Source: Gemmatimonadota bacterium
GTDB lineage: Bacteria > ARS69
DNA: 64,000 nt
Direction: 5' to 3'
Assembly (NCBI GenBank): GCA_030747075.1
Contig: JASLLL010000001.1
Span: 78,868-142,867, forward strand
Shown: positions 5,821-53,782 of the stretch, one piece after another
Layout of the letters: every line of letters starts with the position of its first letter
Position numbering within the stretch: position 1 is the first letter of the stretch
Notes under the pieces: model-generated
Databases searched by the model: none
Seen by the model: the letters and a program-made list of their open reading frames with translations, nothing else
What the model was told of the DNA's origin: nothing
Made by a program: the position numbers and the translations under genes

Positions 5821-5838
5821 GACGAACTCCGGCCGCTG

Positions 5839-27081: not shown

Positions 27082-27172
27082 GTTTTCTCACACCTTACGC
27101 CGCCCGATCCGGGCAGATTCCCAACTTGCCAAGGCACCCCGGGGTGCCCACAAGACCGCCGAAGGAAAAACC

Positions 27173-29047: not shown

Positions 29048-29225
29048 GGGGGGACGCACCCGACCGCCGGGATGGGTCCCCGAAAAGCGGAGCCGACTAT
29101 ACGCAGCGCGCTGGAAAGGTGTCAAGCGGCGGAACGACTGCGCCCAAACCCGCAACTGCGGATTCTTCAAGTGATTGCGACCTGTTCCCCACGGGTTCCC
29201 CGACCCGCCCGGACGGGGAGGCGGG

Positions 29226-31667
29226 CTACTCTGTCGAAGGAGGAGGGGCCCGCGCCTCGCGCCGGGCGTCCAGCACATCCGGATCTCCGCCCTTTTCCAG
29301 ATAGAGGTCGAACAACGGGGCGGCCCCTTCGGGATCTTCGAGGAGAAACTCCCGCACAAGCCCCTGTGTCAGGTAGGGTTCGGGATTGCTCGGATCGGCC
29401 CGAGAAGCCCTCTGAAGGCTCGCGTGCGCCTCCTCACCCTTGCCCAGCATGGCCTGCGTGCGCCCCAGATACAGGAACACCCCCGGGAGGCGCGGTTCCG
29501 CCTCCGCCGCGCGCAGAAAGGCGTCCTCCGCACCCACCGCCTCTCCGGCCTCCAGCAGCAGCAGTCCCAGCCCGCGCGAGGCCTCCGGGCAGGCGTCTCC
29601 CCTCTCGAACAGCCTGCGATAAAGGTCGATGGCTGCCGCGACATTCCCCTTCAGCCGTGTCAGCTCCGCCAGGCGGTAATCCTCGTCGCTCTCGAAGCAC
29701 CCGCCCGCTCCGGCTTCACGAAGTCGCCCCAAATCCTCGATAAACAGCATGTAGCGTCCCATCTGGGCGCGTGCGGAGTCGTTGTGAGGTGCCTGCCAGC
29801 GGTCGTTGTACTCGCGGACCGCCAAGAACTCCCTGCGGGCTCCTTCCACATCTCCCAGCCAGAGAAGCTCCGCCCCCAGCGCGGAATGCCCGAGCAGGTA
29901 GCGAGGTTCCACGGCCACCGCCTGTCGAAGGGCTTCGGCCGCCTCTTCATGCCGCCCCAGTTCGGAGAGGATCACGCCCCGGTTGAACGGCGGGCGGTAG
30001 TAGTCGGGGTTGATCTCTTCCGCGCGGCGAATGTGCTCGAGCCCCTCCTCCAGTTGCCCCAGCCGCACCAGGTCCACTCCGAGATTCAGATGGCACTTGT
30101 CGTACTCGGGCTTCAGTTCGAGCGCGGATCGGTAGTGCTCCACGGCGGCCTCGTGGTCTCCTTCTCCGTCAGAGACGATGCCGTGCCGGTAGAGAATCTG
30201 CGCAATCCCCTTGCTTTCGTCCACGCCGTACACATTCGCGCTCATGAAGAGGCCGATCGCGACGGCACCCGCCACCGCACCCGCCCCCTTTGCCCAGGCC
30301 CGCGCCCGAGTCAGAGCGGCCAGTTCCACCAGCGCAACCCCCGCGAAGAGAACGAGCGCGGGCACAATGGGAAGCCGGTAGCGCGCCAGCACGAAGAAGA
30401 CGATCACGCTTGCGGAGTAGAACCCCACGAAGAGGTAGGGCAGCATCCATCGGCGACGACGACGCCAGGACAGCACCATCCCCAGTACGGCCAGCGGCCC
30501 GAGCACCAGGAAGGTGAACGCCGGCCCTCCAATGGCCCGGCTGAAGTGTCGGAAGTAGCCGAAGTGCTCGATCTGCGGGATCTCGTAGGTGGCCCAGAAG
30601 TGATACGCCTTCATGACCATGAGCGACATCCAACGCGCCGGGTCCCCCCCGATTGTGCGCAGCGTCTCCTTCAGGTAGAAGTCGTTGACCTCGGTAAACG
30701 AGAGCCTCCGGCCCGTGACCTTCTCCGCCTCGGTCCGGCACTCCACATCCTTGTGCAGGTCCGCGACGATCTGCCTCGTGACGGCGTGCTCCCCGACACC
30801 TTCCGTGACGAACAGCACAGGAGTCTCGTGGCCACCGCGTGCCATCGGGCCGTTGCCGATGTACAGGTTGAGTCCGCCGTTTGTCGTCAGGAGGGTGGGA
30901 TCGTCGGTCCGTGCGTTGTGGATCGTTGCGGGGGAGATGGCAAGAAGCGTTCCCGCCGTCAGTACGAGTGCGCCGGGCAGGCCGCGCCGGAGATTCGCGA
31001 GTGCGGGCGAAAACTCCCGGCCCCACGCACATGCCAGCCAGAGGAACGCCGCGGGAGCAAAGAGCAGAATGTTCCCGCGACCCAGCGCATACACGCCCAT
31101 GACGAACCCGGCGGCAAAGGCGTGCGACAGCGACGACCGGCGGGCTGCATCGTGCAGCAGCAGCAGAAGGGAAGCTGCGAGGAAGACGGTGAGGGTCGGA
31201 TAGAGAATCGAGGTGGAGTAGTAGATCAGCGGGCCGTAGAGCGCGACCATCGCGGAGCACGCCATCGCGAGATTCCGCCCGCCGAAACGGCGACCCAGAC
31301 CGTGCGCCACCACCACGGTCGCGACGGAAAGCCCAATCTGCAGAAAGCGCACCATCCATAACCCTGGCCCGAAGAAGTAGTGCACCAGCGCGAGAAGGTG
31401 CGGATAGAGCGGCCCCATGAAGTACGGATCGCTTCGCTGAATCCCTCCCGCCAGAATGGCGCCCGCCCAGTCTTCGTAGTACTTCGAGTCCAGCCCCAGA
31501 AAGTCGAACCAGGAGTGCGCACGCATCGAGTGCCAGTGAATCAGCCGAAGCGCGGACGCCACCAGTACCGCGCCCCACAACCACGACCGTTCGAGGAGGC
31601 TCGTGGGCGAACGGTCCGCCGGGGAGGCTGTGGGCGGGTTTTGGGTCGCTTTACTGGTCACCGTCAT
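29226..31667 (-). CDS. GT-C fold glycosyltransferase (PMT_2/ArnT-like) fused to C-terminal TPR repeats (TMTC-like), paralog of 16115..17878
   Basis: N-terminal ~450 aa form a multi-TM region with PMT_2-type features (GLDSKYYEDWAGAILAGGIQRSDPYFMGPLYPHLLALV). The C-terminal ~330 aa are TPR (ILYRHGIVSDGEGDHEAAVEHYRSALELKPEYDKCHLNLG...). Its start codon is 4 nt downstream of the YfhO-AlkP ORF stop. Confidence 0.75.
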   Translation of the reverse strand: MTVTSKATQNPPTASPADRSPTSLLERSWLWGAVLVASALRLIHWHSMRAHSWFDFLGLDSKYYEDWAGAILAGGIQRSDPYFMGPLYPHLLALVHYFFGPGLWMVRFLQIGLSVATVVVAHGLGRRFGGRNLAMACSAMVALYGPLIYYSTSILYPTLTVFLAASLLLLLHDAARRSSLSHAFAAGFVMGVYALGRGNILLFAPAAFLWLACAWGREFSPALANLRRGLPGALVLTAGTLLAISPATIHNARTDDPTLLTTNGGLNLYIGNGPMARGGHETPVLFVTEGVGEHAVTRQIVADLHKDVECRTEAEKVTGRRLSFTEVNDFYLKETLRTIGGDPARWMSLMVMKAYHFWATYEIPQIEHFGYFRHFSRAIGGPAFTFLVLGPLAVLGMVLSWRRRRRWMLPYLFVGFYSASVIVFFVLARYRLPIVPALVLFAGVALVELAALTRARAWAKGAGAVAGAVAIGLFMSANVYGVDESKGIAQILYRHGIVSDGEGDHEAAVEHYRSALELKPEYDKCHLNLGVDLVRLGQLEEGLEHIRRAEEINPDYYRPPFNRGVILSELGRHEEAAEALRQAVAVEPRYLLGHSALGAELLWLGDVEGARREFLAVREYNDRWQAPHNDSARAQMGRYMLFIEDLGRLREAGAGGCFESDEDYRLAELTRLKGNVAAAIDLYRRLFERGDACPEASRGLGLLLLEAGEAVGAEDAFLRAAEAEPRLPGVFLYLGRTQAMLGKGEEAHASLQRASRADPSNPEPYLTQGLVREFLLEDPEGAAPLFDLYLEKGGDPDVLDARREARAPPPSTE

Positions 31668-31673
31668 GGCTCC

Positions 31674-34600
31674 TTATTGAACATAACCGAGCGATCGGAG
31701 TTGCTCCTCCACGGATCGGTCGTTTCCGGTCGTGCCGGATGGCCGCGACTCCCCGGGTCGGCGCAGGCCGTCCGTCGGGGTCCCGGAGAAAACCACCGGA
31801 CGCGCGGCGATGCAACCCGAACGAAAGAGATGATCCGCCACACGGCCGGTGTATCGACCCGGAACCGCCTCTCCCAGCAGGTGGAGAACGGTTGGGGAGA
31901 TGTCCGCCAGATTCAGCTCCGCGCGAGCACCCGGCGCGAACGGCGGCCCTGTCGCCGCAAAGTACCCGACCCGTCGATGATAGCCCGAGAACACCTTTGG
32001 CGGAATCGGCACGACCACCGGACCGGCCGGATCCCACGGGATGAGGAGGAACCCCTCGGCTTCGATGGCGCAAACATCCGGCCCGACGCCCTGCCCGAAG
32101 CCGGTACCCGGCGTCCCGGCAAGGTCGTGAACTTCGCGGAAGAGGAGATTGCCACGAGGCCCACGCACTTCCCGAAGATGGCGGACGAACAGAGCGCGCG
32201 CCTCCGCATCCTTGCGCATGAGGTAGAACTCGCCGCCGAAGAGACTCCTCGATCCGGGATTCAGCTCCGCAACTTCCGGCGGGATTCCGGCCAGCAGTGC
32301 GTCACGCGAGATCCCCCGGTACGCCGGGCCGAACCCGTGGTCGGCCAGTACCACCAGTGCGGTTTCTTTCGGAAGGCGGTGGCGCACTTCGCCGAGAACC
32401 TCGTCGCACCATGCGTAAATGTCGCGGACCGCGGTGCGGAGAGGCTCGGGGGCGCCGGGATCGTGGCGGGGGTGCGCGGAATCGTGGAACTTCCAGAGGT
32501 GATGCTGAATGCGATCCGGCACCGTGAACACGATGAACGACAGGTCCGGCGATGCATCGAACAGAAGGTCCAGCCCGATCTCCCGACGCGCCTCCGCCTT
32601 TGCCCGAAGGTCCGCCAGCCACGACAGCTCCTGTCCCGGGGGAGGGAGCCCGGGAAGTTCGTCGCGCGGATATCCGGCCCCCGCCAGAGAGTCCGCGAGG
32701 GAGGGTGGCCAGGTGAGCGGCGCCCCCTCAGGATAGGGAAAGCCCGCGACCATGAAGCCGCGCACCGAGTCCGGCGGGCAGGTCACCGGCACATTGACGA
32801 CCCCCACCGTGCGGCCCGCAGACGCAAGATCCTGCCAGACGGTGGGCGCAAGGCGGTGGGTCGCGTCGATGTACGCGCCACGCGGGTCGCTCCGGTCATC
32901 GCCGACCACCCAGAACCCCCACACGCCATGCGCGGAAGGTTCGACGCCGGTCGTGGCCGTCGTCCATGCGGGCGGGGAAATCATGGGGAGCGTACTGCGC
33001 ACCCCCCCGGCCGCGCCCTCTGCCCGGAGGCGCGCGAAGTTCGGCAGGAGCCCTTCGGCTTCCATCTCCTCCACAAGCCCGGCATCCAGCCCGTCGAATC
33101 CGAGAACGAATACCGGCGCGGGTTTCGCGGCCTCCTGCGCCGCGTTTCCGCCGCACGCGCCCAGAAGGAACGGGAGCACAACGCACGCCGCCACCGACGC
33201 AACCCGGCGGCGCGGGATGCAAAGGAGCGCCCCGGCGGCAAGCAGCCCCGCGATCGAGAGAATGCGCCCCGCCCGCACCGGGATGGGATTGTAAACCATG
33301 CGAACCTCATGCTCCCCCGGCGGGACGACCACCCCGCGCACCACCCCGTACACGGGAAGCACGGGGGCATCGTCACCGTCGATCTCCGCGCGCCACCCGG
33401 GACTGTAGGTGTCCGCAAGCACCAGGAGCCGTTCAGCCGGGGCTTCCGTGACAAGTCTCACCTCGTTCCAGGAGTCGCGCATCATGCGAACCGTCCCGGC
33501 TTCGTCGCTCTCGCTCCCTTCCTCGCCTACGGATCCCACGCCCACCCAGTACGCTTCGCATCCGGGAGCGAACGCCCCCTCGGCAAGCACCGACTCCATT
33601 TCCAGTTCGGACACGCCGTGAGCGCGAGCCACCAGCCGCGCACGGGGAAGCGCCTCTTCGTTGACGAAGACGCGAAATCCCCCGCCCTTGATCTCACGCC
33701 ATCCGCGCGCCGAGAGAGTCTCGGTGCCGACCGCAGCGCGAACGGAAAGCGCATCGAGAACGGGATGCTCCATCGAAGACGCGCGCTCGGGCGCGAGAAT
33801 CCTCCGGCCCGACCAGATCCCGCCGGTGAAGAGTTCCTCCCCCAGCGCGGTCTCCAACGCGTCGCCAACACGACGCTCCGCCAGCGCGTTGTAGCCCTGC
33901 AGGTCGCGCAACCGGAACGGCACATTCGTCGAGGGAGGCAGCACGCCAGAGAGCTTCCCCGCGCGCGCTGCCGGGTGCCGCCCGAATCGGAGGAAGCGTC
34001 CGCCGCCCATGCCCTCGTCCTCCAGCACGCTTCGAAGCGCGGTGATGGACGGCGTCTCGACGAAGACCTCCGAAGGCAGCCGGTCTCCCCGGTAAGGCGC
34101 GGCCAGCGGGTAGAGTTGCACAAGAGCCAGCACGAACGGTGCGGCCGCGACGAGCGGCCGTGCGCCAAGGAGAAACGCGACGCCCGTTCCGGCCGCGAAG
34201 AGTGCCGCGGTGGTCGTCCGCGCGAGAACGGTCGTGGCAAACTCCACGGGGAGCGGCTCCCCCGCGCCCAGAAGAAGCGGAAGGTCCGCGCCCGCCCGAC
34301 GCACCAGCAGCCATCCACCCGCGGCCAGGAGTATCGTGCCGACGCCCGCGACGCGTCGCCAACGCCCATCCGCGCGAAGAAGATCCGCGGCGCCGTATGC
34401 GGCCAGCACGAACTGCGCGACGACCAACAGGTACCCGGCGCGATCCATCCGCGAGAACGAGAACCCGGGGAGGACGGCGTGCGCGAACCGGGCCGGCGGA
34501 GCGGCGAACGCAATCCCGGCAAACGCGACGAACACCGCCGCCCACGGCAGCGCGTCACGGCGCGTGCGGGGATTCGCCACAGCCCAGAGCGCCAGCAGGA

Positions 34601-35606
34601 ATACCGGCGTCGCGGCGGAGATGGTGTTGAGCTGGTGCCGCAGGTAGAAACCATCGCCGCGCGGGAAGAGAAGGCTCCACTCGTCTCCGGTGACGGGCGA
34701 ACCGAAGAAGTTCGGCACGAGGAAGCGGATGGCCTCCACCGGGTGCACGGAACCGGACGCAACCGTGGCAAAGGGCAGCGACGCGCGCGCGGACCGGGAC
34801 GCCAGATCCACGGTCGGGAGAAGTTGCGCGGCGGAGAGCAGGAAGGCCAGCACCCCCGCCGCCGCAAACGCCCCGAGGGTGGGGGCGAGTCGCGGGCGCT
34901 TCGCGGAGTCCGTCGGAAATGCGTACAGGACGATCAGGACCAGCAGGGTCGCATAGATCGTGTGGAAGAAGGTCTGTGGCTGCCCCGCCAGAAAGAGAAA
35001 CGCGCCGACCATGCCCAGCCATGCGCTCTCGCGAAGTCCGGGCCGCGCAAAGACCGAAAGCGCCGCCGCCAGAAACCACGGTGTCCAGGCCGCCGCCGCC
35101 AGAAAGGTCGGCTGGCCGAAGTGCTTGGCGAAGTACTCGTTCAGGCAGAAGGCCGCGGCAGCGCTCAACGCAACAAGCGGGGGGACGCGATGCCGGAGAA
35201 GCAGCAACATGCCCAGGCCGCCCCACGCCGCGTGCAGAAAGAGGAAGAGGCCGAGTTGCCGGGCGGGATCCATCGGGAAGAGCGCCCAGTTTGGGGGGTA
35301 GAGTACGCCTGCCTGCACATCGGCCAGAAACGGCGTGCCCCCGAAGGAGTACGGATTCCAGAGCGGCACTTCGCCGTCCTTCCACGCCGCATGGAGCACG
35401 GCGCGGCGCGGGTAGTACGAGAGGTTGCAGTCCGGGTTGTGCGAAGGGGACCCGACGCTCTCCTTCGGCCCTTCGACTCCCCACGGCAGCCAGCGGTCCA
35501 TCCCGCTCGTCACGGCAACGCGGCCGCCGAAAAGTTCCGGGGCAAAGAACACCGCCGCGAGCACCACGACGACCATGCCGGAGAGCACCAGACGACGGCG
35601 GGTCAT
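31674..35606 (-). CDS. YfhO-like polytopic membrane glycosyltransferase fused in-frame to a C-terminal alkaline-phosphatase-superfamily (type I phosphodiesterase/NPP-like) domain
   Basis: The 1453-aa ORF begins with a ~143-aa Arg-rich non-protein-like extension. The real start is the internal Met MTRRRLVLSGMVVVVLAAVFFAPELFGG at ~35606, which overlaps the upstream gene's stop (ATGA). Residues ~144-890 are YfhO-like (many TM helices; NPYSFGGTPFLADVQAGVLYPPNWALF; terminal TM ILSIAGLLAAGALLCIPRRR). With no stop codon they continue into VASVAACVVLPFLLGACGGN... and an NPP/AlkP-like domain (PVFVLGFDGLDAGL...LPNFARLRAEGAAGG...LPMISPPAWTTATTGVEPSAHGV...LADHGFG), ending ...EEQLRSLGYVQ. The domain junction is near 33357. 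Confidence 0.65.
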   Translation of the reverse strand: MTRRRLVLSGMVVVVLAAVFFAPELFGGRVAVTSGMDRWLPWGVEGPKESVGSPSHNPDCNLSYYPRRAVLHAAWKDGEVPLWNPYSFGGTPFLADVQAGVLYPPNWALFPMDPARQLGLFLFLHAAWGGLGMLLLLRHRVPPLVALSAAAAFCLNEYFAKHFGQPTFLAAAAWTPWFLAAALSVFARPGLRESAWLGMVGAFLFLAGQPQTFFHTIYATLLVLIVLYAFPTDSAKRPRLAPTLGAFAAAGVLAFLLSAAQLLPTVDLASRSARASLPFATVASGSVHPVEAIRFLVPNFFGSPVTGDEWSLLFPRGDGFYLRHQLNTISAATPVFLLALWAVANPRTRRDALPWAAVFVAFAGIAFAAPPARFAHAVLPGFSFSRMDRAGYLLVVAQFVLAAYGAADLLRADGRWRRVAGVGTILLAAGGWLLVRRAGADLPLLLGAGEPLPVEFATTVLARTTTAALFAAGTGVAFLLGARPLVAAAPFVLALVQLYPLAAPYRGDRLPSEVFVETPSITALRSVLEDEGMGGGRFLRFGRHPAARAGKLSGVLPPSTNVPFRLRDLQGYNALAERRVGDALETALGEELFTGGIWSGRRILAPERASSMEHPVLDALSVRAAVGTETLSARGWREIKGGGFRVFVNEEALPRARLVARAHGVSELEMESVLAEGAFAPGCEAYWVGVGSVGEEGSESDEAGTVRMMRDSWNEVRLVTEAPAERLLVLADTYSPGWRAEIDGDDAPVLPVYGVVRGVVVPPGEHEVRMVYNPIPVRAGRILSIAGLLAAGALLCIPRRRVASVAACVVLPFLLGACGGNAAQEAAKPAPVFVLGFDGLDAGLVEEMEAEGLLPNFARLRAEGAAGGVRSTLPMISPPAWTTATTGVEPSAHGVWGFWVVGDDRSDPRGAYIDATHRLAPTVWQDLASAGRTVGVVNVPVTCPPDSVRGFMVAGFPYPEGAPLTWPPSLADSLAGAGYPRDELPGLPPPGQELSWLADLRAKAEARREIGLDLLFDASPDLSFIVFTVPDRIQHHLWKFHDSAHPRHDPGAPEPLRTAVRDIYAWCDEVLGEVRHRLPKETALVVLADHGFGPAYRGISRDALLAGIPPEVAELNPGSRSLFGGEFYLMRKDAEARALFVRHLREVRGPRGNLLFREVHDLAGTPGTGFGQGVGPDVCAIEAEGFLLIPWDPAGPVVVPIPPKVFSGYHRRVGYFAATGPPFAPGARAELNLADISPTVLHLLGEAVPGRYTGRVADHLFRSGCIAARPVVFSGTPTDGLRRPGESRPSGTTGNDRSVEEQLRSLGYVQ

Positions 35607-37162
35607 CGCGGACCCCCGTCGGTTCGGCGAAGTGCGGTTCGCAGCACTGCGGTCCACTCGCGCTCCGCGACGCCGTCTTCGCTCAGGAGCCTGACGGCGC
35701 GGGCGTCGTTCCCGGCGGCCGCCTCCGCGCCGGCGAGCATCCACGCCGCGTGGTGCGCTCCGGCAACCGGGAGGTGTCGCGCCGAACCGAACACGCGTGC
35801 GACACCGAGATGGCGCGGCCCCGGAAGCACATAGACCCCGGCGACCAGCGGCCACGCGCGCACCCACAGGAGAAGCACCACCGTCGCGACCACGACCGAG
35901 CGCCGGAGTATTCCGCGCTCCCGGATTCTCCGGGCGGCAGCGACCGCCGCCACCGCGAGAATGGGAACGAGCGGTTGATGCATTCGCGAGTGCCCGTACA
36001 CGACCATGTGGACGACGAAGTAGACCGCGACCCACGACACCGCCAGCGAACGAAACCGTGACCGCCGCATGGCGGCCAGCCCCACGGGGCCACCGATGAG
36101 GAAAACCACCGACGCCGCCAGCGTGAGAAGCGAAAGCGCGACCGCCGCGCCCGGCGACACCGGCCCGTACCAGTCGCGAAGAAGGTGGCGCGGCAGGAAG
36201 AAATCAGGCGACCAGAACGCCGCCGCCTTCCCCGGCGCGCGAAGCAGGGCGGCGGCCGGGTCCCGCGCCACTTCCTCCATGGCCCGCGCGCGGTACCATC
36301 GGTCGCGGGCAATCCGGGCATCTTCGCCGCGCCCCGCGCCATCGGCGGCCATGCGCCGCTCCACATCTTCCCGCCAGCGCGGATCGGACAGCGGCACGCC
36401 CACGCCATTCCCGGGCGCAAGCCCCACCGACCAGAGCGCGGGCAGCCCTTCGCCCAGGTAGCGGTTGTGCCCGCTCCACAGGTTGAATCCGCCGTTTGCG
36501 TCGATGAGAACGGGTTCGCCCGCCCTCCCGCTGGCGTGCAGGCTCCACGGCGCCACGATCACCACGCCCGCGGCCAGGAGGGCACCCGCGCAGAGGAGGC
36601 GACGACCGCGCGGAGCGGACGCGGCAAGCCACACGGCACTCACCGCGAGAAGCGCAAGCCCCGTCGACCGGGTCAGCGCCGCCGCGCCCAGCAGCGCGCC
36701 CGCCCCGGCCGCGCGAAACGCCCCGCCGCGTCGCGACGCCGCCGGTAGCAACGCGAACGCCGCCAGCGCGAGGAATCCGTAGAGCGTCTCCGACCATAGA
36801 AGATGCGAGAAGGCAATGTGCGACGGATGAAGCGCGACGAGCGCGGAGGCCGCGAGTGCCCCGCGAGTGCCCAGCGGACGACGCGCGACGCGCCACACGA
36901 GCGCCACCGTTCCGACACTCAGGAGCGCCTGAAGAACGCGCACGCCCACGGCCTGCCCGCCGGAGAGCAGAAGCCCCGCCGCCGTGAACCACTGGTAGCC
37001 GGGTGCCCGCCAGAGCGCCGGGCCGCCTTCATCCGAAGCGATCCGGGCGCCGTAGGACAGGAACTCGGTCTCGTCGTAGCGGGGTGTGAGGTCCGCAAAG
37101 AAAACCGCGAGGGCCACGCGAAGGACCAGCGCCCCCGCGAGAATCCCGGCGAGTCCTCTCAC
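35603..37162 (-). CDS. ArnT/PMT_2-like GT-C fold membrane glycosyltransferase (no TPR)
   Basis: About 12 TM helices with ArnT/PMT_2-like N-terminal features (LTPRYDETEFLSYGARIA...LHPSHIAFSHLLWSETLYGF). The first ~99 aa of the 618-aa ORF are not protein-like. The likely start is an in-frame GTG at ~37162 that overlaps the GT2 stop (GTGA), giving MRGLAGILAGALVLRVALAVFF. Confidence 0.7.
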   Translation of the reverse strand: MRGLAGILAGALVLRVALAVFFADLTPRYDETEFLSYGARIASDEGGPALWRAPGYQWFTAAGLLLSGGQAVGVRVLQALLSVGTVALVWRVARRPLGTRGALAASALVALHPSHIAFSHLLWSETLYGFLALAAFALLPAASRRGGAFRAAGAGALLGAAALTRSTGLALLAVSAVWLAASAPRGRRLLCAGALLAAGVVIVAPWSLHASGRAGEPVLIDANGGFNLWSGHNRYLGEGLPALWSVGLAPGNGVGVPLSDPRWREDVERRMAADGAGRGEDARIARDRWYRARAMEEVARDPAAALLRAPGKAAAFWSPDFFLPRHLLRDWYGPVSPGAAVALSLLTLAASVVFLIGGPVGLAAMRRSRFRSLAVSWVAVYFVVHMVVYGHSRMHQPLVPILAVAAVAAARRIRERGILRRSVVVATVVLLLWVRAWPLVAGVYVLPGPRHLGVARVFGSARHLPVAGAHHAAWMLAGAEAAAGNDARAVRLLSEDGVAEREWTAVLRTALRRTDGGPR

Positions 37163-37887
37163 CGATTGCCCCGAAGAACGATGCTCACCCACATGCTCGC
37201 AATCTCGCGAAGCGTGGAAAGCACATGGCTCGGGCGAACCGTGGACTCTCCCGCTTCGCGCGGGAAGTGCCGCACGCCGATTTCGGTCATGCGCATCTTC
37301 TGGCGCGAGGCCTTTGCGAGAATCTCCGTGTCGACGAAGAACTTGTCCGACTCGATGTGGATCGTGTCGAACACTTCGCGGCGGAAGAGCTTGAAGGCAC
37401 AGTCCACATCGCGGACGCGGATGCGGAAGAGAATCCGCACAAGCAGGTTGTACCCCCACGACAGGATGAGCCGGGAGAGGGGGTCGAACCGGTAAATGCG
37501 AAAGCCGCAGACGATCTCGTAGTCGTCGATGGCGGCCAGGAAGTTCTTGATCTCGCGAATGTCGAACTGGTTGTCCGCGTCGGTGTAAAACACCAGCGGC
37601 ATGGCGGCCCCGCCGAACCCGGTGGCCAGCGCCTTCGCATAACCCCGGTTGGTCTCGTGAACAAGCGTTCGCAGTTTCGGGACTTCCTCGCGAAGACCTT
37701 CGAGAATCTCTCCGGTGCGGTCGGCGCTTCCATCGTCCACAACGATGACTTCGTAATCCTCGAAGCGGAACTCCCGCAGCACGGAGTCTACCGAGCGCAC
37801 CTGCCGCTCAATGCTCTCTTCTTCGTTGTACGCGGGAAGAACCACCGAGATCTTTCGCCCGACACCGGGCGGGGGTCTGTCAGCCAA
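37159..37887 (-). CDS. GT2-family polyprenol-phosphate sugar transferase (DPM1/CsbB/GtrB-like)
   Basis: ISVVLPAYNEEESI...YEVIVVDDGSADRT...NRGYAKAL...DADNQFD, with a C-terminal amphipathic/TM tail. This is typical of the GT2 enzymes that make polyprenol-P-sugar donors for GT-C transferases. Confidence 0.85.
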   Translation of the reverse strand: MADRPPPGVGRKISVVLPAYNEEESIERQVRSVDSVLREFRFEDYEVIVVDDGSADRTGEILEGLREEVPKLRTLVHETNRGYAKALATGFGGAAMPLVFYTDADNQFDIREIKNFLAAIDDYEIVCGFRIYRFDPLSRLILSWGYNLLVRILFRIRVRDVDCAFKLFRREVFDTIHIESDKFFVDTEILAKASRQKMRMTEIGVRHFPREAGESTVRPSHVLSTLREIASMWVSIVLRGNR

Positions 37888-39625
37888 GGTACCCGATCCC
37901 CCGAAGCCGGTTGCGGATCTCCTCCCGCTCCGACTCGCTCATGTGATGATCCTCGCCGGTGCCGCCCTCCCCCGCCGGGGGGGCGCCACGCACCGGACGC
38001 TCCTTCATTTCGGCTTCCGTGAACACACTTTCCAGCACACGCCCGTCAAAGTCCGACGGAATCCCCAGGCCCAGATGGTGGAGGATCGTCGGCGCGACAT
38101 CCAGAAGCCGTCCGCCCCGGAGCACCGCTCCCCGGCGAACCCCGTCGCCCGCCGCGAAGAAGATCCCGTTCATCCGATGGTCTCCTGAGTTTCCGTACAC
38201 CGGTTCGATGAATCGGTTCGAGGTAAAATCCACCGTACCCAACGCCTTGTTCCGCATGTCCACAGGAAGGAAGGTGATCTCCGGCGCACGGTGGACGAAC
38301 GGGCCGTCGTAGAGGTCCCCGGCGCGGTGAATCTCCCCGATGAGCGGTTCGCCGGTATTCGGGTCCTGAAGCGCCCGCAGTTCGCGGATGACTTCTTCCG
38401 TCACGCGCTCCGCCTCTTCGCCCGGCTCCACCGACCCGCTCGGTTCGCGGCCCCGCAGGTTGAGGAAGATCTGCCCGTAGTTCCCCTTGGAGTAGGCCGT
38501 GCTCCGCGACCAGTCCACATCGTCCAGCGACAGGAACACGCGATTGATCCGGCGAAGGAGACGCACGCGCGTCCCCACGCCCGAGGCAAGGCGCATCCGC
38601 GCGAACCCGAGCTTCATGGAGATCCGGTAGCCAAGCGCGGGGGTGAGTCCCATCTCGAAGAGCGCGCGCCGGGCAAAGGTCAACAACCCCGGCTTCAGCC
38701 GCAGGAACCCCTTCTGCAACAGCCAGACATTGAACACGAAGAAGCGATGGATGGGGCCGAACCCGTGGTCGGAGAGCACCACGGTGGTCGCGTCCGGGGC
38801 GGCCGCCATCCACTCGCCGACGACGGCGTCCACGCGCCGGAAGTAGTCCACGCACCGGTCGCGGCAGATCAGCGCCTCCGCGGGGTCGTGCTCCGGGTGG
38901 CTCGGGTCGAGAATGTGCCAGAGTTCGTGGCCGAAGCGGTCCGTGCCCCAGACATGGAGCATCGCGAAGTCCCACTCCTTCTCCGTCAGAAGCCAGTGGT
39001 ATGCGCGACGGTTCGCCTCCAGCACGCGGTCCAGTTCATCGAGCACCGGGGCGGCGTTCCCCTTTCGGTACACCTCGACATGATAGAGCTGGTAGGGACC
39101 GGTCGCTTCCTCGATCTCGGCGAGCAGTTCCGGCGGCCAGGTGAAGTCGCGGTTTCCCATCGGCGTGAGGAAATCACCCACGAGATTCCCGCGCACCGGA
39201 GACGGCGGGTAGGTGACCGGCACGCCGACGACCAGCACCTTCTTCCCCGCCTCGGAGAGAATCTCCCACAGCGTCTTCCCCGCGCGGGCAGCGGAGTTCA
39301 CGGGGACTTCGTCAAAGCTCCCCGGCTCGCGGAGAAAGAACTCGAAGACGCCATGCCGCCCGGGGTTCTTGCCGGTCATGAAGGAACACCACGCGGGCGC
39401 GGTCACCGGCGGAATGATCGATTCCAGCGGACCGGACACGCCCTCGTCGCGGAGCCGCGCGAGATTCGGCATGGTGCCGTCGTCCAGCCACGGCCCGATC
39501 AGATCCAGTGTGGCGCCGTCGAGCGCGATGGCGAGAACGCGGCGGGACACGACTATTCCGGCTGGAGGTACACGGGGCTCGACCAGGCCATCCCCCCGTA
39601 CTCGTCCATGCCGCGCAGGTAGCAC
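37880..39625 (-). CDS. Alkaline-phosphatase-superfamily protein (type I phosphodiesterase/nucleotide pyrophosphatase-like), paralog 2
   Basis: VLAIALDGATLDLIGPWLDDGTMPNLARLRDEGVSGPLESIIPPVTAPAWCSFMTGKNPGRHGV (Thr nucleophile, PF01663-like); LSDHGFG; C-terminal tail ...EEIRNRLRGIGYLG. No signal peptide. An alternative GTG start at ~39550, 4 nt after the DUF3604-like gene's stop, would remove the 72-nt overlap. Confidence 0.75.
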   Translation of the reverse strand: MLPARHGRVRGDGLVEPRVPPAGIVVSRRVLAIALDGATLDLIGPWLDDGTMPNLARLRDEGVSGPLESIIPPVTAPAWCSFMTGKNPGRHGVFEFFLREPGSFDEVPVNSAARAGKTLWEILSEAGKKVLVVGVPVTYPPSPVRGNLVGDFLTPMGNRDFTWPPELLAEIEEATGPYQLYHVEVYRKGNAAPVLDELDRVLEANRRAYHWLLTEKEWDFAMLHVWGTDRFGHELWHILDPSHPEHDPAEALICRDRCVDYFRRVDAVVGEWMAAAPDATTVVLSDHGFGPIHRFFVFNVWLLQKGFLRLKPGLLTFARRALFEMGLTPALGYRISMKLGFARMRLASGVGTRVRLLRRINRVFLSLDDVDWSRSTAYSKGNYGQIFLNLRGREPSGSVEPGEEAERVTEEVIRELRALQDPNTGEPLIGEIHRAGDLYDGPFVHRAPEITFLPVDMRNKALGTVDFTSNRFIEPVYGNSGDHRMNGIFFAAGDGVRRGAVLRGGRLLDVAPTILHHLGLGIPSDFDGRVLESVFTEAEMKERPVRGAPPAGEGGTGEDHHMSESEREEIRNRLRGIGYLG

Positions 39626-41055
39626 CAGGTCGGCTCGGTGACCGGGAGCGTCTCGGCCGTGATCTCCACGACATCGATGTCCTCGCCTTCCGGCATGAGC
39701 GCGGCGATCGGCCCGTCCGGCCCGACGACCTCGATCCGCATCCAGCGCGTCATCGACCCGAGCGAACCGTAGATGGCCGCGACATGGCCACTCGGCACGC
39801 GAAGGTCCGAACCCATCTGGTGCCCGTCGACGGTGAACTCCAGCAGGTAACGACGGCCGGAGGTGGCGTAGCAGCGACGCTCACGAAGCGCGTCCAGCAC
39901 GGCCTCGCGGGTCAGTTCCTTTGCGAGAACGGCGGTCAGCCCGACAGGCCAGATGCTGTCCCCGGTGCGAATGCCCATGGGGTTGCCGGGTTGCGTCGAG
40001 CGAATGTCCCCGGTGCCGATGAAGCCCACGCGCGCCCCGGAGGCGAGAAGGTCCTTCGCGTAGGGACCGGGCGCGTCTCCGGTGTCCGGCGGGCGCGGAA
40101 GCCCGGCCGATTCAAACATCCCGAGCGACGAAACCACTTCCACCAGCCCCTCCCGCGACGGGGCTACGGAGGCGGGATCCACGGCGGGACGCGTCGTGGT
40201 TCCGGGCGGGTGCGGCACCGCGAGGATGGCACCGTCAGGAAGCGCGGCGGCGAGTTTCTCCGGTGTGTCGAATCCGGCCGCGTTCGACCACAACCGCTCC
40301 GGCGGCCCCGGGAGAAGCACGAGGCGATCCCCATACTCCCCGGACGCCCAGCGGAAACCATGCAGCGGGATGAAGTCTCCCGGGCGGTGGAGATCGTCGA
40401 GGACGCTGCCTTCGATCTCCATCCACGCCTCTTCGTCGAGCGCCTTTTCGATGGACGCGTCATAGTCCGAATCCGTCAACGCCGCGAAGTCCAATAGCCC
40501 CACGCCGCGCGCGTACCAGAAATAGACGGCGGGCGCGTGGTTCCCCGCGCCGAGGTCGCTCACGCCGCTCAGGTCACCCCAGTAGATCCGGTAGTCGGGA
40601 TCCGTCTGGACGACGAAGGCGTTCGCTTCCGCCGACACGGTGTCCTCCGGAACGAGGCCGCGCAGGTTCTGTACGCCCGGAAGCTCAAAGACGAGGCCTT
40701 CCATCAGGTAGAAACCGTCTTCGTCCGGCTCCCAGGAAGCGCGGTCCATCTTCTGGAACGGGTTCTCGGCGGAGGCTTCCACGCGAAACCCGCCTTCGAA
40801 GTCGTAGTCCGGCGCGCCAACCTGCGTCACGACGCGCATCTTGAGGTCGACTTCTTCGCCCGCCTTCACGATGGACGGGATCACGAGATGGACATAGGTA
40901 CCCACTTCCGTCACGGGCACGGAGGGGCCTGCCGATTCGGTTCCGCCCTCCGACGGGACGGCGGCATCCTCGGTGCCTTTGCCGCATCCGGGGAGAAGGA
41001 GAGCCAGCGCGACGAGCCATGCCGTCGCGACGGTTGTTGTTCCACCGTGCATCAT
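39553..41055 (-). CDS. Lipoprotein, DUF3604-like (my family assignment is uncertain)
   Basis: Lipoprotein signal (LVALALLLPGCG). No catalytic motif I can recognise; the segments RCYATSGRRYLLEF and AVPHPPG are reminiscent of DUF3604/PHP-like secreted proteins. Coding potential looks good throughout. Confidence 0.5.
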   Translation of the reverse strand: MMHGGTTTVATAWLVALALLLPGCGKGTEDAAVPSEGGTESAGPSVPVTEVGTYVHLVIPSIVKAGEEVDLKMRVVTQVGAPDYDFEGGFRVEASAENPFQKMDRASWEPDEDGFYLMEGLVFELPGVQNLRGLVPEDTVSAEANAFVVQTDPDYRIYWGDLSGVSDLGAGNHAPAVYFWYARGVGLLDFAALTDSDYDASIEKALDEEAWMEIEGSVLDDLHRPGDFIPLHGFRWASGEYGDRLVLLPGPPERLWSNAAGFDTPEKLAAALPDGAILAVPHPPGTTTRPAVDPASVAPSREGLVEVVSSLGMFESAGLPRPPDTGDAPGPYAKDLLASGARVGFIGTGDIRSTQPGNPMGIRTGDSIWPVGLTAVLAKELTREAVLDALRERRCYATSGRRYLLEFTVDGHQMGSDLRVPSGHVAAIYGSLGSMTRWMRIEVVGPDGPIAALMPEGEDIDVVEITAETLPVTEPTWCYLRGMDEYGGMAWSSPVYLQPE

Positions 41056-41090
41056 CCGGATTCCTCCCGGCCCGTGGGCCGCGTGTCCTG

Positions 41091-42422
41091 TCAGTCGAGA
41101 TACCCCAGTGCGCGAAGCCGGGACACAATCTCCGCGTCCACCGGGGAGGCAACGGGCGCCCCTCCGCGCTCTCGATCCACTTCCGGCTCCCAGGAGGGAA
41201 TCTCCTGAACGGGATGTCCAAAGAGGTGTTCCTCTTCGAAGAGATCCAGCGCGGGGCTTCCGTCCATGTCCGTCGCCACCGGCAGCCCGGAAGCATAGAG
41301 GAGGGTTGGCGTGAAGTCGACCACCGACGCCGGGGGCAGAAGGCCTTCGCGGAGCCCCGGCCCGTCACTGAGAAGAATGCCGCTGGAGCGATGCCACCCG
41401 GAACTGGTGGCTCGCGCGGGGTCGCGGTTTTCGCGAAACCCGTGGTCCGACAGAATAAAGAGCCGCGTGGGCTCCTCCTCGCGGGCGAGGACGCCGGTGA
41501 GGATATCGTCGACGGAGCGGTACGCGCTCTCGATGCTGAGTCCGTAGGCCGCCACTTCGGCGGGGTCCACCTTGCCGAGAGCGTAGGTGTCCGGCTCCAT
41601 GTACTTCCAGAACCGGTGACCCACGACATCCACCGACCCGAAATAGAGAAACTCCACATCCGCGCGTTCCGCCGGCTGTGAACGGTCCGCAAGGTGGTGG
41701 TAGATGCGTTCGTAGGTGCGGTCGCTGGCCCACGACCAGCGCATGCCCTCCAGCGATCGGGCGGCGTCGGGCGATGGCGCACGGGGAAGGGGAACGCCGG
41801 TGAAGCGCGCGGCGAGTTCATGGTCGCCAATGGAATCGGGGCGCGTCTTCAGCGCGGACAGCTCCTCTTGAAGCCCGGGCGGCCAGACTTGATCGCGGAT
41901 GCCTTCGACGAAGGTGCCCTTCAGCGGACGGCTGGCCTTGTCGCCGCTCCATCCCGCAAAAAAGGGCGTGTACGAAGAGATCATCACGCCATTCACCGGC
42001 TCCGCGGGCCAGGTGGCCAGCCAGCCGTACACGCCCACCGTGCGATCGCGTGCGGAGAGGATGTTCCAGGCAGCGGCGACGCGGCGCTGGTTGGAGGTGA
42101 CAGGCTGAATGGAGCCGTCTTCGCCGCGCGTCACGAAGTGGTGGATGCCGTGGCGCTCGGGGAGGACGCCGGTGGCGGCGGTGGTCCAGATGGTGGGCGA
42201 GAGGCGCTCGGGAATGAGCGACACGAGCGTTCGCCGGGAACCCGTGCGGAGGATGCGCTTCATGGCGGGGAGCTTCCCCTGCCGCACGAGCGGGAGCGCG
42301 CGGTCCCAGTCCGCGCCGTCGATCCCGAAGACGATGACGCGCGGGGCGGGGTTGTCGCCTCCACCGGAACATCCGGCCGCGAAGAGGAGCGCGGCGGCGA
42401 GCGGAAGCGACAAGCGCCTCAC
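41091..42422 (-). CDS. Alkaline-phosphatase-superfamily lipoprotein (type I phosphodiesterase/NPP-like), paralog 3
   Basis: The likely start is a GTG overlapping the glyS stop (GTGA), giving [21 protein letters not shown] (lipobox). RVIVFGIDGADWD...LVSLIPERLSPTIWTTAATGVLPERHG (Ser nucleophile); LSDHGF; C-terminal tail ...AEIVSRLRALGYLD. Confidence 0.75.
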   Translation of the reverse strand: MRRLSLPLAAALLFAAGCSGGGDNPAPRVIVFGIDGADWDRALPLVRQGKLPAMKRILRTGSRRTLVSLIPERLSPTIWTTAATGVLPERHGIHHFVTRGEDGSIQPVTSNQRRVAAAWNILSARDRTVGVYGWLATWPAEPVNGVMISSYTPFFAGWSGDKASRPLKGTFVEGIRDQVWPPGLQEELSALKTRPDSIGDHELAARFTGVPLPRAPSPDAARSLEGMRWSWASDRTYERIYHHLADRSQPAERADVEFLYFGSVDVVGHRFWKYMEPDTYALGKVDPAEVAAYGLSIESAYRSVDDILTGVLAREEEPTRLFILSDHGFRENRDPARATSSGWHRSSGILLSDGPGLREGLLPPASVVDFTPTLLYASGLPVATDMDGSPALDLFEEEHLFGHPVQEIPSWEPEVDRERGGAPVASPVDAEIVSRLRALGYLD

Positions 42423-44514
42423 GCGGCGCCACGCTCCGGAGGGGAGATCCTCGACAGATCCGCAAGCCCGGCGAAGCGGTCCGCGATGCGCCCGAGAAGC
42501 CGGAGGCGGTTCCGGCGGACGGCATCGTCGTCGGTGAGGACCATGACGGAGTCGAAGAAGTGGTCGATGGGTCCGCGAAGGCTGGCCAGCCCGGCGAGCG
42601 CTTCCGCGTAGCGGCACTCCTCTTCGGCGCGGCCGACTTCCGCGTCCACCGCGGCGAACGCGTCGAAGAGGGCGGTCTCGGCGTCTTCGGTGAGAAGATC
42701 GCGCTCCGGGGCGCCTTCGGCCGACTCCTTCTTCAGAATGTTCCGCGCGCGCTTGAACCCGGCGGCAAGGGCCTCGAAGTCATCGCGGCTCGTCCTCCGC
42801 ATGGCGGTGAGCGCTTCCGTGCGCGCGCGCGCATCCACGGGATTCCCGCCGGAGGACGCGACGACGGCGGCGGCCACATCGGCATCGAACCCTTCTTCCG
42901 CGAGATGCCCGGCCAGCCGGTCGCGCACGAAGGCGGAGGCTTCCGCGACGACGGTGTCCGGATCCGCAAGGAGGCCGCCGTAGAGATCCGCGGCGGCGCG
43001 GATGAGTGACCCGACGCGCTCGGCGAGATTGCGGTCGAGGAGGATGCGGATGACGCCGATCGCCCCGCGGCGGAGCCCGTGGGGATCCTTCGATCCGGTG
43101 GGCTTCAGCCCGGCGCCCCAGACTCCGACGAGCGTGTCGATCCGGTCCGCAAGCGCAATCGCCGCTCCGGCGGGGGACGCGGGAAGCCCGTCTCCGGCGT
43201 GGCGCGGGAAGTACTGCTCCTCGATGGCGGCGGCGACCTCGTCCGGTTCGCCGCACGCGCGCGCGTATTCCTTTCCGATGGTGCCTTGAAGCGCGGTGAA
43301 CTCCTTGCCGTCACGGATCATCTCCGTGGTGAGGTCCGTCTTGGAGAGAAGCGCGGCGCGATCGGTGGTCTGTTCGGCGTCGGGGAAGTGCGCCGAGGCG
43401 ATGGACACGGCAAGCTTGCGCACGCGGTCCGTCTTGTCACCGAGTGATCCGAACCCGCGCAGCCAGACGATGTCCGCAAGCCGGGGGACTTTCTCCTCCA
43501 GCGTGGTGCGGCGATCCTCCGTCCAGTAGAACCGTGCGTCGTCGAGGCGCGCGCGGAGAACGCGTTCGTTGCCGTCGCGCACCTGCGCGGGGTCGCCCGG
43601 CTCTCCGTTCAGCACGCAGAGGAACCGGGGCAGGAGCTTTCCGTCCGGCCCGGCGACCACGAAGTACCGCTGGTGCGAACGCATGGCGGTGCGAATCACG
43701 ATCTCGGGAAGCCGGAGGAACTCGTCGTCGAAGGAGCCGGTGAGCGCGTGTGGCGTCTCCACAAGGCAGGCGACCTCCTCAACGAGCGCGGCATCCGGCA
43801 CGAGGGTCCCGCCCGCGTCGCGAGCGGCGTCCGCGAGAAGCGCCGCGATCCGCTCTTCGCGAAGGGCTGCGTTCGGCACCACGCGCCCCTTCGCGAGGGA
43901 ATCCGCGTAGTCTGCGGGGGAGCGCATCTCGAACGGACCGGGGCCGAGCAACCGGTGACCGAAGGTCGCGCGGCCGGTCTGGACACCTTCGATCGAAAAG
44001 GGCACGACCTCCCCGCCCAGAAGCGCCACCAGCCAGCGGATGGGCCGGGCGAAACGGAAGCGGTCCGGCCCCCAGCGCATCGTCTTCGGAAAGACGATCG
44101 CGGCCGTGGCCGCGGGGAGTGCTTCGGCCAGAAGGTCCGCGGTGCGCCGCCCGGGAGTGGTGACGGTCGCGCCGACATACGGCCCCTTCTCCGTCTCCAC
44201 CTTGACGAGGTCGGCGACGGCCAGCCCGCGGCCCTTCGCGAACCCTTCCGCCGCTTTCGTCGGGGTGCCGTCCCCGGCAAAGGCGGCCTTCCACGGCGGA
44301 CCGGTGACCTCTTCCACGCGATCCTCCTGCGACTCCGGGAGACCGGTGATGGAAAGCGCGAGGCGGCGCGGGGTGTAGTCGACGGAGAGGCTGCGGAAGG
44401 GGAGCGCCGCGCCGGTCAGGAACGCGCGCACCTCCGACTCCAGCCCGCGCGCGGCGGGAGCCAGGTAACCGGCGGGAATCTCTTCGGTACCGATCTCGTA
44501 GAGCAGGTCGGCGT

Positions 44515-44518
<4 letters not shown>
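42419..44518 (-). CDS. glyS: Glycine--tRNA ligase beta subunit
   Basis: [26 protein letters not shown]... is a typical GlyS N-terminus, with similarity across the whole length. It is immediately downstream of glyQ with a 4-nt overlap. Confidence 0.9.
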
Positions 44519-45393
<875 letters not shown>

Positions 45394-45585
45394 GGTCCGG
45401 CTCCTCCGAATGGCGAGGGAGTATAGCGGAATCCGGCGGTGTGGGAAGAGGCGCGTGGGGGGTGCCGGAACCGGCCAGGCGACCGCGCGCGGGAAGGCCC
45501 GCAACCGCAAGCCGGGTGCGCCGTGAGGCGGGCGTGAGGAATCGGCAGCCTTGTCGAAGCGACCGGGGCAGACTAGACTGGTGCC

Positions 45586-53699: not shown

Positions 53700-53782
53700 C
53701 CGCACTGGTCGCGTCTGTTTGTGTGCCCCACGCGAGAGACTTGGCTATTTGGCGCATTTTCCTGCGATCCGGAGGGTTCCCC

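Follow-up and report, generated by a model that had tools for sequence, protein, structure and literature searches.

Why would genes for glycosyltransferases that presumably work across a membrane be interleaved, almost without spacing, with genes for phosphoesterases, and what would such a set of enzymes make? Extracytoplasmic glycosylation from lipid-phosphate-sugar donors is well studied in Firmicutes, in Actinobacteria and in proteobacterial lipopolysaccharide (LPS), but hardly in uncultured or poorly cultured diderm phyla. The question is raised by a 64-kb stretch of DNA from an uncultured Gemmatimonadota bacterium (contig JASLLL010000001.1, positions 78,868 to 142,867; hereafter the window), in which a minus-strand array running from glyQ to position 29226 encodes a GT2 glycosyltransferase, three polytopic GT-C-type proteins (an ArnT-like PMT_2 protein, YfhO and a PMT_2+TPR protein), NPP-type phosphoesterases (NPP1, NPP2 and NPP3) and a DUF3604-like lipoprotein. 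Its gene order recurs in related genomes, and the array is a conserved functional unit, not a chance juxtaposition. We lean, by a little, towards reading it as a conserved operon for multi-component transmembrane glycosylation with partnered phosphoesterases, with an LPS-like acceptor weakly favoured.

A tight array of glycosyltransferase and phosphoesterase genes

The window has a G+C content of 60–71%, so spurious open reading frames (ORFs) are common in it, and gene calls were checked by codon-position G+C, by inspection of start sites and by comparison with relatives. The first-pass annotation had described about 11 co-directional genes with overlaps at almost every junction. We count nine ORFs (ten ancestral genes) in an array that is indeed tight and on the minus strand, but overlaps occur at only five of the eight junctions (ATGA, GTGA, 8 nt, GTGA and ATGA), the remaining three being gaps of 35, 2 and 6 nt. 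The array and its flanking promoter-like sites are as follows:

45447..45420, minus strand: weak sigma-70-like site upstream of glyQ (promoter scan, 9/12)
44515–45393, minus strand: glyQ, first gene of the array, called from ORF, start site and ribosome-binding site, with PF02091 in homologs
42419–44518, minus strand: glyS, whose start overlaps glyQ (ATGA) and whose stop overlaps NPP1 (GTGA)
41091–42422, minus strand: NPP1 lipoprotein (PF01663; lipobox LFAAGC)
39553–41055, minus strand: DUF3604 or CehA/McbA-like metallohydrolase lipoprotein (PF12228; lipobox LLPGC)
37880–39550, minus strand: NPP2, an NPP-fold enzyme without a signal peptide
37159–37887, minus strand: GT2, 242 aa (Glycos_transf_2), 8-nt overlap with the NPP2 stop
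35603–37162, minus strand: ArnT-like PMT_2 GT-C, 519 aa (Pfam), GTGA overlap with the GT2 stop, start in agreement with relatives
31674–35606, minus strand: fused YfhO::NPP3 ORF, 1310 aa (YfhO and Phosphodiest)
33207–35606, minus strand: YfhO-family GT-C part of the fusion, residues 1–800
31674–33206, minus strand: NPP3 part of the fusion, residues 801–1310
29226–31667, minus strand: PMT_2+TPR GT-C of TMTC-like architecture, 813 aa (Pfam), last gene of the tight array
29096–29125, minus strand: sigma-70-like promoter match TTGACA-18-TATAGT, an 11/12 consensus match only

Beyond 29226 there is a gap of about 180 nt, which holds the second of these promoter-like sites, and then four co-directional genes for secreted proteins or lipoproteins (22119–29029). 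Terminator-like sites within the array are no commoner than expected by chance (18, versus 12.8 ± 3.2 in shuffled sequence). On this layout, glyQ to 29226 would form one transcription unit and the downstream lipoprotein genes a second, which, though syntenic in relatives, appears to be driven by its own promoter. No Rfam family or tRNA is found anywhere in the window, so there is no T-box ahead of glyQS.

Pfam searches support every domain assignment previously made in the array. Phosphodiest is matched by NPP1 (E = 1.3e-20), NPP2 (E = 3e-38) and NPP3 (E = 9e-28), Glycos_transf_2 (PF00535) by GT2 (E = 1.6e-28), and PMT_2 by the ArnT-like protein (E = 1.3e-13) and the PMT_2+TPR protein (E = 3.5e-7), the latter also matching TPR families (best E = 2e-21) at about residues 483–766. 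The lipoprotein at 39553–41055 matches DUF3604 over a short stretch only (E = 1.3e-8). The YfhO match (PF09586) is likewise confined to a C-terminal stretch (E = 8e-8, 34 bits), but this weak assignment is backed by the aligned YfhO relatives, since 13 of 13 match PF09586, with a best E value of 3.5e-30.

Conservation of gene order and linkage to glyQS

The full order glyQ, glyS, NPP1, DUF3604, NPP2, GT2, PMT_2, YfhO, NPP3, PMT_2/TPR is found in five relatives (loci L001, L002, L003, L005 and L083), in which YfhO is 46–56% identical to that of the window; glyQ is 82–85% identical in the first four, L083 being left out of that comparison. Synteny continues with an optional fifth NPP gene, then the genes for a PD40 lipoprotein, a PKD lipoprotein and the protein that we call lp3, and orthologs of the PMT_2+TPR protein are present in all syntenic loci. 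At 34% YfhO identity, L084 carries a variant order (glyQS, NPP2-like, GT2, YfhO, PMT_2, PF03706, YfhO, PMT_2/TPR, NPP). With the order kept in five relatives and a rearranged version at this distance, the fortuitous juxtaposition that the first-pass annotation had allowed for is refuted. A 46%-identical YfhO in L004, an Eisenbacteria metagenome-assembled genome (MAG), stands in a different gene context, and in 76 distant YfhO loci, drawn from many phyla, no protein homologous to the NPP or PMT_2 proteins of the cluster is present.

The glycyl-tRNA synthetase genes belong to the conserved arrangement. glyS is directly upstream of the cluster also in L001, L002, L005, L083, L084, L093, L113, L126, L130, L153 and L155, and immediately upstream of NPP2 in 6 of 47 loci, a filter that undercounts, glyS being only 40–47% identical there. 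glyQS adjoins the NPP2/GT2 module in L149 as well, and the stop and start codons often overlap. The linkage is either a very old operon arrangement or a means of housekeeping expression of the module; no functional tie of the module to glycyl-tRNA is evident.

NPP2 and GT2 form the constant core

Which part of the array is its core? NPP2 and GT2 are conserved better than any other protein of the cluster, with 71–78% identity to relatives (NPP2 71–73%), and their 8-nt overlap is conserved in those relatives. A metagenome scan with an NPP2 profile, followed by tblastn, placed an orthologous GT2 directly downstream of NPP2 (<1 kb, same strand) in 40 of the 53 loci with enough downstream sequence, and in 32 of 35 where NPP2 identity is 50–60%; the linkage weakens below about 47% identity. 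A PF03706 (MprF-like) gene lies within 6 kb in 29 of 37 loci, a GT-C gene is co-located in 28 and further NPP paralogs in 19. Full-length NPP2 homologs at 52–55% identity occur in MAGs labelled Acidobacteriota/Blastocatellia and Eisenbacteria, and the GT2 family is 61–78% identical across lineages, with all homologs between 236 and 244 aa. The pair is usually followed in Acidobacteriota loci by the MprF-like flippase gene and GT-C genes, the GT-C adjoining it being PMT_2-like, and L167 and L168 hold a minimal form (lpxC, NPP2, GT2, PF03706).

Other arrangements are seen among these loci. L085, L086 and about 25 soil loci (L097, L106 and L118 among them) have the order NPP, NPP, YfhO, Wzx-like flippase, NPP2, GT2, PF03706, followed in some by a PMT_2-like GT-C and then usually by further GT2 and GT4 genes; the Acidobacteriota-type module looks there as if it sits within a polysaccharide locus. 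In L159, L162 and L163, NPP2 paralogs of about 45% identity are followed directly by a GT9 (heptosyltransferase-family) homolog, not by GT2.

GT2 carries DDGS and DAD (DXD) motifs and is probably a glycosyltransferase of the polyprenyl-phosphate type (ArnC/GtrB/DPMS-like). Its closest sequences in the PDB are ArnC (2e-20) and Pyrococcus DPMS (5e-16), GtrB being weaker, and the top 18 Foldseek matches of its AF2 model (pLDDT 82.6) are ArnC, DPMS and GtrB (TM-score 0.67–0.80), followed by glucosyl-3-phosphoglycerate synthases. No hydrophobic segment or transmembrane helix is found by hydropathy over its 242 aa, so that it lacks the two C-terminal helices of CsbB/GtrB-type enzymes, and ArnC is closer to it than GtrB.

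NPP2 shows no signal peptide in any of 32 homologs, in all of which D11, T50, D204, H208, D261, H262 and H458 are invariant. The best fold matches of its model (pLDDT 89.5) are Xac NPP, ENPP1/3/6 and PhnA, and its nucleophile, Thr50, falls opposite Thr64 in an alignment with PhnA. The family has an insertion of its own, a conserved stretch of about 100 residues that is rich in hydrophobic and basic side chains and may bind the membrane; given the conserved coupling, NPP2 could serve as the membrane partner of GT2. The label "extracytoplasmic" that had been given to the cluster thus fits its GT-C and lipoprotein parts, but not NPP2 and GT2, which have neither signal peptide nor transmembrane segment.

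The GT-C enzymes and the YfhO::NPP3 fusion

Hydropathy gives the three GT-C proteins 7–11 hydrophobic segments each, with at least seven in the ArnT-like protein. All three have the acidic motif in the first outer loop expected of polytopic GT-C enzymes: both PMT_2 proteins carry D-E/D-S motifs directly after the first transmembrane helix (YDETEF in the ArnT-like protein, LDSKYY in the PMT_2+TPR protein), and Asp59 in the first loop of YfhO is invariant among aligned relatives.

The YfhO::AlkP fusion described by the first-pass annotation is a real ORF, seen in several MAGs, but it is specific to one species and corresponds to two genes in relatives. When the 120 best database matches of the 1310-aa protein are compared, the two domains occur together in its own 90% cluster and in no other, which rules the fusion out as a family trait; every other match is a YfhO protein about 800 aa long. 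Relatives have YfhO, then a spacer of about 45–75 nt and a separate Phosphodiest lipoprotein gene, and in the window the stop codon and spacer have been deleted in frame, as seen when the junction is aligned against L001 and L002. The former lipoprotein signal peptide is kept inside the fusion (...LLCIPRRR-VASVAACVVLPFLLGAC...; Cys818, at about 33153–33155). The same 1310-aa fusion, with small substitutions, is present in four NCBI MAG proteins and in an ENA record that is possibly the same MAG as one of the four, giving an independent count of at least four; these shared but slightly different sequences rule out an assembly artefact. Two adjacent genes have recently been joined in frame, and this is limited to a single species-level lineage. 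An apparent YfhO::NPP2 fusion ORF in L149 is, by frame arithmetic, an overlapping-frame artefact of high GC.

Two neighbouring hydrophobic segments, residues 779–797 (the last YfhO transmembrane helix) and 802–820, are split by PRRR. Such a hairpin would place the C-terminal domain of YfhO and NPP3 both in the periplasm. Because the two are fused in frame in this species, YfhO and NPP3 may well act together physically, and the natural fusion is a direct hypothesis of a YfhO–NPP complex.

Phosphoesterase paralogs and the downstream lipoproteins

NPP1, NPP2, NPP3 and the fifth paralog, NPP5, of relatives all retain the Ser/Thr nucleophile and the six ligands of the two-metal site (alignment, three genomes). 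NPP1, NPP3 and the NPP5 proteins are lipoproteins with Ser at the nucleophile position. The paralogs are only 24–35% identical to one another by tblastn and are for this reason taken to be old duplicates. The fifth lipoprotein gene, a 33% paralog of NPP1, stands after PMT_2/TPR in L001 (16496–17836) and L083 (16408–17724); the window and L002 are without it, and the corresponding gap in the window (29029–29226) holds the promoter-like site instead. All NPP paralogs of the window, L001 and L083, whether cytoplasmic or lipoprotein, end in (R/K)LRxLGY(L/V)x. These termini are encoded at 41091–41120 (NPP1), 37880–37910 (NPP2) and 31674–31700 (NPP3), and in the NPP2 model the motif comes directly after a C-terminal helix (539–551).

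The DUF3604-like lipoprotein matches NF038032 at 6e-15, below the cut-off of that family, and its orthologs carry PF12228; it is probably a phosphoesterase of the PHP type. The genes that follow the array encode four proteins with almost no Pfam signal:

27173–29029, minus strand: PD40/beta-propeller-like lipoprotein (weak PD40), syntenic in relatives
25585–27081, minus strand: PKD-like secreted protein or lipoprotein (weak PKD), syntenic in relatives
23540–25588, minus strand: lp3, syntenic in relatives
22119–23543, minus strand: sp4, a secreted protein or lipoprotein

The PD40 lipoprotein is a possible acceptor or accessory protein, and a 22%-identical homolog of it is encoded downstream of the module in L149. 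The PKD-like protein and lp3 are distant paralogs, with 25–27% identity in their N-terminal parts. Sequence searches of the PDB with the DUF3604-like protein, the PD40 lipoprotein, sp4 and the YfhO profile yielded no informative match.

A proposed pathway and its alternatives

How might these parts work together? From its fold and homology, the GT2, which lacks transmembrane helices, would use a nucleotide sugar to glycosylate a lipid phosphate, most likely polyprenyl phosphate, at the cytoplasmic face. NPP2 would be its obligate, translationally coupled partner, probably placed at the membrane through its insertion, and would either edit a lipid-linked intermediate or precursor or tether GT2. 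The lipid-linked sugar would then be flipped, a step for which other lineages have the adjacent MprF-like gene, and the ArnT-like PMT_2, YfhO and PMT_2+TPR proteins, judging from their family membership, would pass it to one or more periplasmic acceptors. NPP1, NPP3 and the DUF3604 protein, all periplasmic, might work on the same acceptor or donor, either stripping phosphate or phosphodiester groups or adding phospho-substituents beside the sugars. Dephosphorylation followed by glycosylation seems somewhat more likely than glycosylation followed by addition of a phospho-group, because known lipid-donor phosphotransferases have polytopic membrane domains, which are absent here; it also suits hydrolases that are soluble or anchored as lipoproteins.

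That the acceptor is an LPS-like glycolipid or glycan is a tentative assignment, a little short of an even chance. It is hinted at by lpxC, which immediately precedes the module in L167, L168 and L124, by a GT9 homolog in nine loci, by a Wzx-like gene in 26 soil loci and by GT4 genes in about 20. Proteins are a somewhat unlikely acceptor, for which the TPR domain and the conserved downstream lipoproteins speak.

Several observations weigh against the glycosylation operon that we favour. The LPS hints stem from other lineages and not from that of the window, in which nothing identifies the acceptor. No flippase gene was found in the 64 kb: Pfam scans of all but a few of the ORFs of 80 aa or more found no flippase family, GtrA and Wzx included, and tblastn with three PF03706 proteins found no homolog. 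A flippase may be encoded elsewhere in the genome (PF03706 adjoins GT2 in related lineages). The periplasmic NPPs lack the polytopic membrane domain of LtaS, EptA and GacH, which makes a transferase role doubtful for them. We found no precedent in the literature for a cytoplasmic NPP enzyme in such pathways, and some of the metagenome contigs are near-identical, so that the locus counts given above overstate independence.

Could the cluster serve protein O-glycosylation instead? The GT-C enzymes, above all the TPR-bearing one, would then modify secreted proteins or lipoproteins from a polyprenyl-phosphate-sugar, much as actinobacterial Pmt, eukaryotic TMTC1-4 and streptococcal Pgf proteins do, with the four downstream proteins (22119–29029) as the likeliest targets. 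The PMT_2+TPR protein has the TMTC architecture (PMC7801869), and the downstream lipoproteins are syntenic in L001, L002, L005 and L083, with a distant homolog in L149; yet a gap of about 180 nt with a strong promoter-like site sets their genes apart, and the Acidobacteriota-type loci have the core module but not these genes. The sole NCBIfam match of the YfhO part is PgfM2, but the match is very weak (E = 1.7e-4, C-terminal 60 residues) and uninformative on specificity. There is no MIR domain, four or five phosphoesterases would be left unexplained, and we consider O-glycosylation unlikely. A different division of labour would make NPP2, GT2 and the MprF-like flippase a synthase-modifier-flippase set that exports a modified glycolipid or glycophospholipid, the GT-C enzymes being separate or secondary. 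PF03706 is viewed as a translocator of phospholipids (bioRxiv 10.1101/2022.03.11.483950), gpgSDF shares the three-part logic (PMC12713373), and in L167 and L168 the three genes occur without an adjacent GT-C. The glucosyl-3-phosphoglycerate synthases, next among the fold matches of GT2, likewise work in a pathway of synthase, then phosphatase, but GT2 is clearly nearer to ArnC, DPMS and GtrB than to any other GT2. GT-C genes accompany the pair in most of the loci scored for them (28/37), three are translationally coupled to it in the window, where PF03706 is missing, and they need a lipid-phosphate-sugar donor for which the cluster holds no other synthase; glycolipid export as the main function is, in our view, quite unlikely.

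The phosphoesterases might also have no part in building the product. NPP-family proteins are typically hydrolases, and here they are lipoproteins without membrane domains, which would suit phosphate-scavenging ectoenzymes, along with the DUF3604 protein; phosphate scarcity would be plausible if the organism is marine, as we presume from the names of the MAGs. Against scavenging, NPP and glycosyltransferase genes keep their interleaved order in deeply diverged loci, the cytoplasmic NPP2 is tied to GT2 through the 8-nt overlap, and one NPP is fused in frame to YfhO in this species. Recycling of the lipid carrier is another such role, and there are hydrolases dedicated to releasing undecaprenyl phosphate from lipid-linked sugars (PMC11898649), but recycling would still place the enzymes within the pathway. 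We give scavenging and recycling together very little chance of being the explanation.

Transmembrane glycosylation with partnered phosphoesterases, the reading that we prefer, has a broader and more speculative form, which we think unlikely to hold in full. The NPP2–GT2 pair, the MprF-like flippase of most lineages and the GT-C and NPP genes might constitute a housekeeping envelope pathway that builds a phosphate-bearing glycoconjugate, with the NPPs as phosphoryl transferases or editors. It would span at least Acidobacteriota and the lineages labelled Eisenbacteria and Gemmatimonadota, several deep branches would co-transcribe it with glyQS, and its product, on the outer face of the inner membrane of diderms, would be a counterpart of glycosylated teichoic acid or of the glycosylphosphatidylinositol (GPI) core. 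If so, the YfhO::NPP3 fusion would be a Rosetta stone for the GT-C/NPP partnership.

Relation to known systems

The first-pass annotation had likened the pairing of GT2 and YfhO to the CsbB/YfhO architecture. An association between the two families is general (GT2 lies within 10 kb of YfhO in 49/76 distant loci), but the architecture of GT2 differs, and its constant partner is NPP2. In CsbB-GtcA-YfhO and GtlA-GtcA-GtlB, which glycosylate teichoic acids (PMC5836110, PMC8035078), a GT2 lipid-phosphate-sugar synthase feeds a YfhO or PMT_2 GT-C outside the cytoplasm, as would be the case here; this general logic of the first-pass annotation is supported. In contrast to these systems of Bacillus, Staphylococcus and Listeria, the GT2 of the array has no transmembrane helices, the window has no GtrA-type flippase, there are three GT-C enzymes instead of one together with four NPP-type proteins and one PHP-like protein, and the host, probably a diderm, gives no sign of lipoteichoic acid. 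Nor does the window show an LtaS-like gene (PF00884). The presence of a YfhO-family GT-C notwithstanding, the architecture of GT2 places the array outside the CsbB/YfhO systems.

SccH and GacH belong to the sulfatase/LtaS family and have an N-terminal membrane domain. The streptococcal clusters for rhamnopolysaccharide side chains that contain them, SccN/P+SccM/Q+SccH and GacI/J/K/L+GacH (PMC11754754, PMC8035078), resemble the array in combining lipid-phosphate-sugar synthases, several GT-C enzymes and an alkaline-phosphatase-superfamily enzyme, which in those clusters puts a phospho-group on the added sugar. SccH is a glycerol-phosphate transferase clustered with GT-C enzymes, and SccM and SccH glycosylate and then add a phospho-group (PMC11754754); GacI and GacJ belong to a multi-component glycosylation system in which a GT-A without transmembrane helices has a partner protein (PMC8035078), and GacI, which like our GT2 has no transmembrane helices, needs one. 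The differences are that the enzymes of the array are of the NPP family and are lipoproteins or cytoplasmic, and that GT2 would be partnered by an enzyme rather than by a small membrane protein. The LtaS/GacH/EptA class does not accommodate them: the domain is PF01663 and not PF00884, NPP1 is a lipoprotein, as NPP3 was before the fusion, and NPP2 is a soluble protein. The architecture of that class, a catalytic domain joined to an N-terminal polytopic membrane domain, is mimicked only by the YfhO::NPP3 fusion of this one species.

In Rhizobium lipid A, RgtE acts with RgtA-D and with the phosphatases LpxE and LpxF, and dephosphorylation precedes glycosylation. ArnC/ArnT and RgtE/RgtA-D are alike to the array in that one GT2 supplies several ArnT-like GT-C enzymes, ArnC being the closest solved relative of our GT2, and the periplasmic phosphatases that clear acceptor phosphates in lipid A remodelling are a further likeness; the phosphoesterases here, however, are of NPP or PHP type and not PAP2. 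No ArnA, ArnB or ArnD family is reported in the Pfam scans of window ORFs, and the array does not belong to the Arn pathway.

Eukaryotic GPI-anchor assembly uses the Dol-P-Man synthase DPM1, which lacks transmembrane helices, the GT-C mannosyltransferases PIG-M, PIG-V and PIG-B, and the PF01663 phosphoethanolamine transferases PIG-N, PIG-O and PIG-G. The analogy is one of parts only, in that three GT-C enzymes act in turn and PF01663 enzymes decorate the added sugars, whereas the bacterial NPPs have no PIG-N-type membrane domain and no inositol-lipid or transamidase genes are present. The protein O-mannosyltransferases TMTC1-4 and PMT (PMC7801869) share with the PMT_2+TPR protein, in a Pfam-level match only, a PMT-clan GT-C domain followed by TPR repeats on the non-cytoplasmic side, but the array has no MIR domain and is a bacterial operon with phosphoesterases. 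The gpgSDF locus for GlcN-PG in Pseudomonas and hexSDF in C. difficile (PMC12713373) share with related loci an operon of a cytoplasmic glycosyltransferase, a modifier that is also cytoplasmic and a UPF0104/PF03706 flippase. L085, L086 and L167 have this synthase-modifier-flippase arrangement, with GT2 and not GT4 and an NPP and not a deacetylase; GpgS is a GT4 and its modifier a deacetylase, while the window is without PF03706 and adds three GT-C enzymes.

The new elements are the constant NPP2–GT2 pair, the pairing of GT-C and NPP genes and the breadth of the module. We found no paper that describes any of the three, which, our coverage of the literature being incomplete, is weak evidence, and literature searches with the combination of Pfam accessions and with DUF3604 returned nothing relevant. 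The locus defines a recognizable module: an NPP without a signal peptide, a 240-aa GT2 and GT-C/NPP pairs. If the NPPs are truly coupled to the transferases, they would be a new class of enzymatic partner for GT-C pathways, and the module would point to an envelope component in Acidobacteriota and their relatives, which are abundant in soil and sea.

Surrounding genes of the window

The calls that the first-pass annotation had made for peripheral genes (the Bat operon, a second PMT_2+TPR, UDPGP, ICMT, a sulfotransferase and a fourth Phosphodiest) are borne out by Pfam:

2–6831: Bat operon (Pfam)
16115–17878, plus strand: second PMT_2+TPR gene (Pfam)
59242–59760: PEMT/ICMT-like methyltransferase (Pfam)
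59741–61132: eukaryotic-type UDPGP (Pfam)
61147–62325: DUF3810 metalloprotease-like protein
62289–62900, minus strand: sulfotransferase (Pfam)
from about 63256, past the window end: fourth NPP-like protein (Phosphodiest), membrane-anchored

The genes at 59242–63999 form a small group that may act on lipids or sugars. Those for the UGPase, sulfotransferase, ICMT and fourth NPP lie 14–20 kb from the cluster, with the unrelated Znu, ApbE, AbiE and MalQ genes intervening. Between the cluster and the UDPGP region there are also a gene for a CHAT-domain protein (52647–53705, minus strand) and an AbiEi/AbiEii pair (54597–56406), and 52647–56406 looks like an inserted defence or mobile patch. On the other side of the array, the second PMT_2+TPR gene is followed on the plus strand by one whose 988-aa product combines TPR repeats with a domain resembling spermine/spermidine synthases (16115–20888 together); a pyruvate phosphate dikinase gene runs towards them in convergent orientation. 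Directly upstream of the znuA-like and ABC-3 genes lies one for a secreted protein of 366 aa (45988–47088, plus strand) that matches no Pfam family and is possibly the outer-membrane protein of a metal-uptake system.

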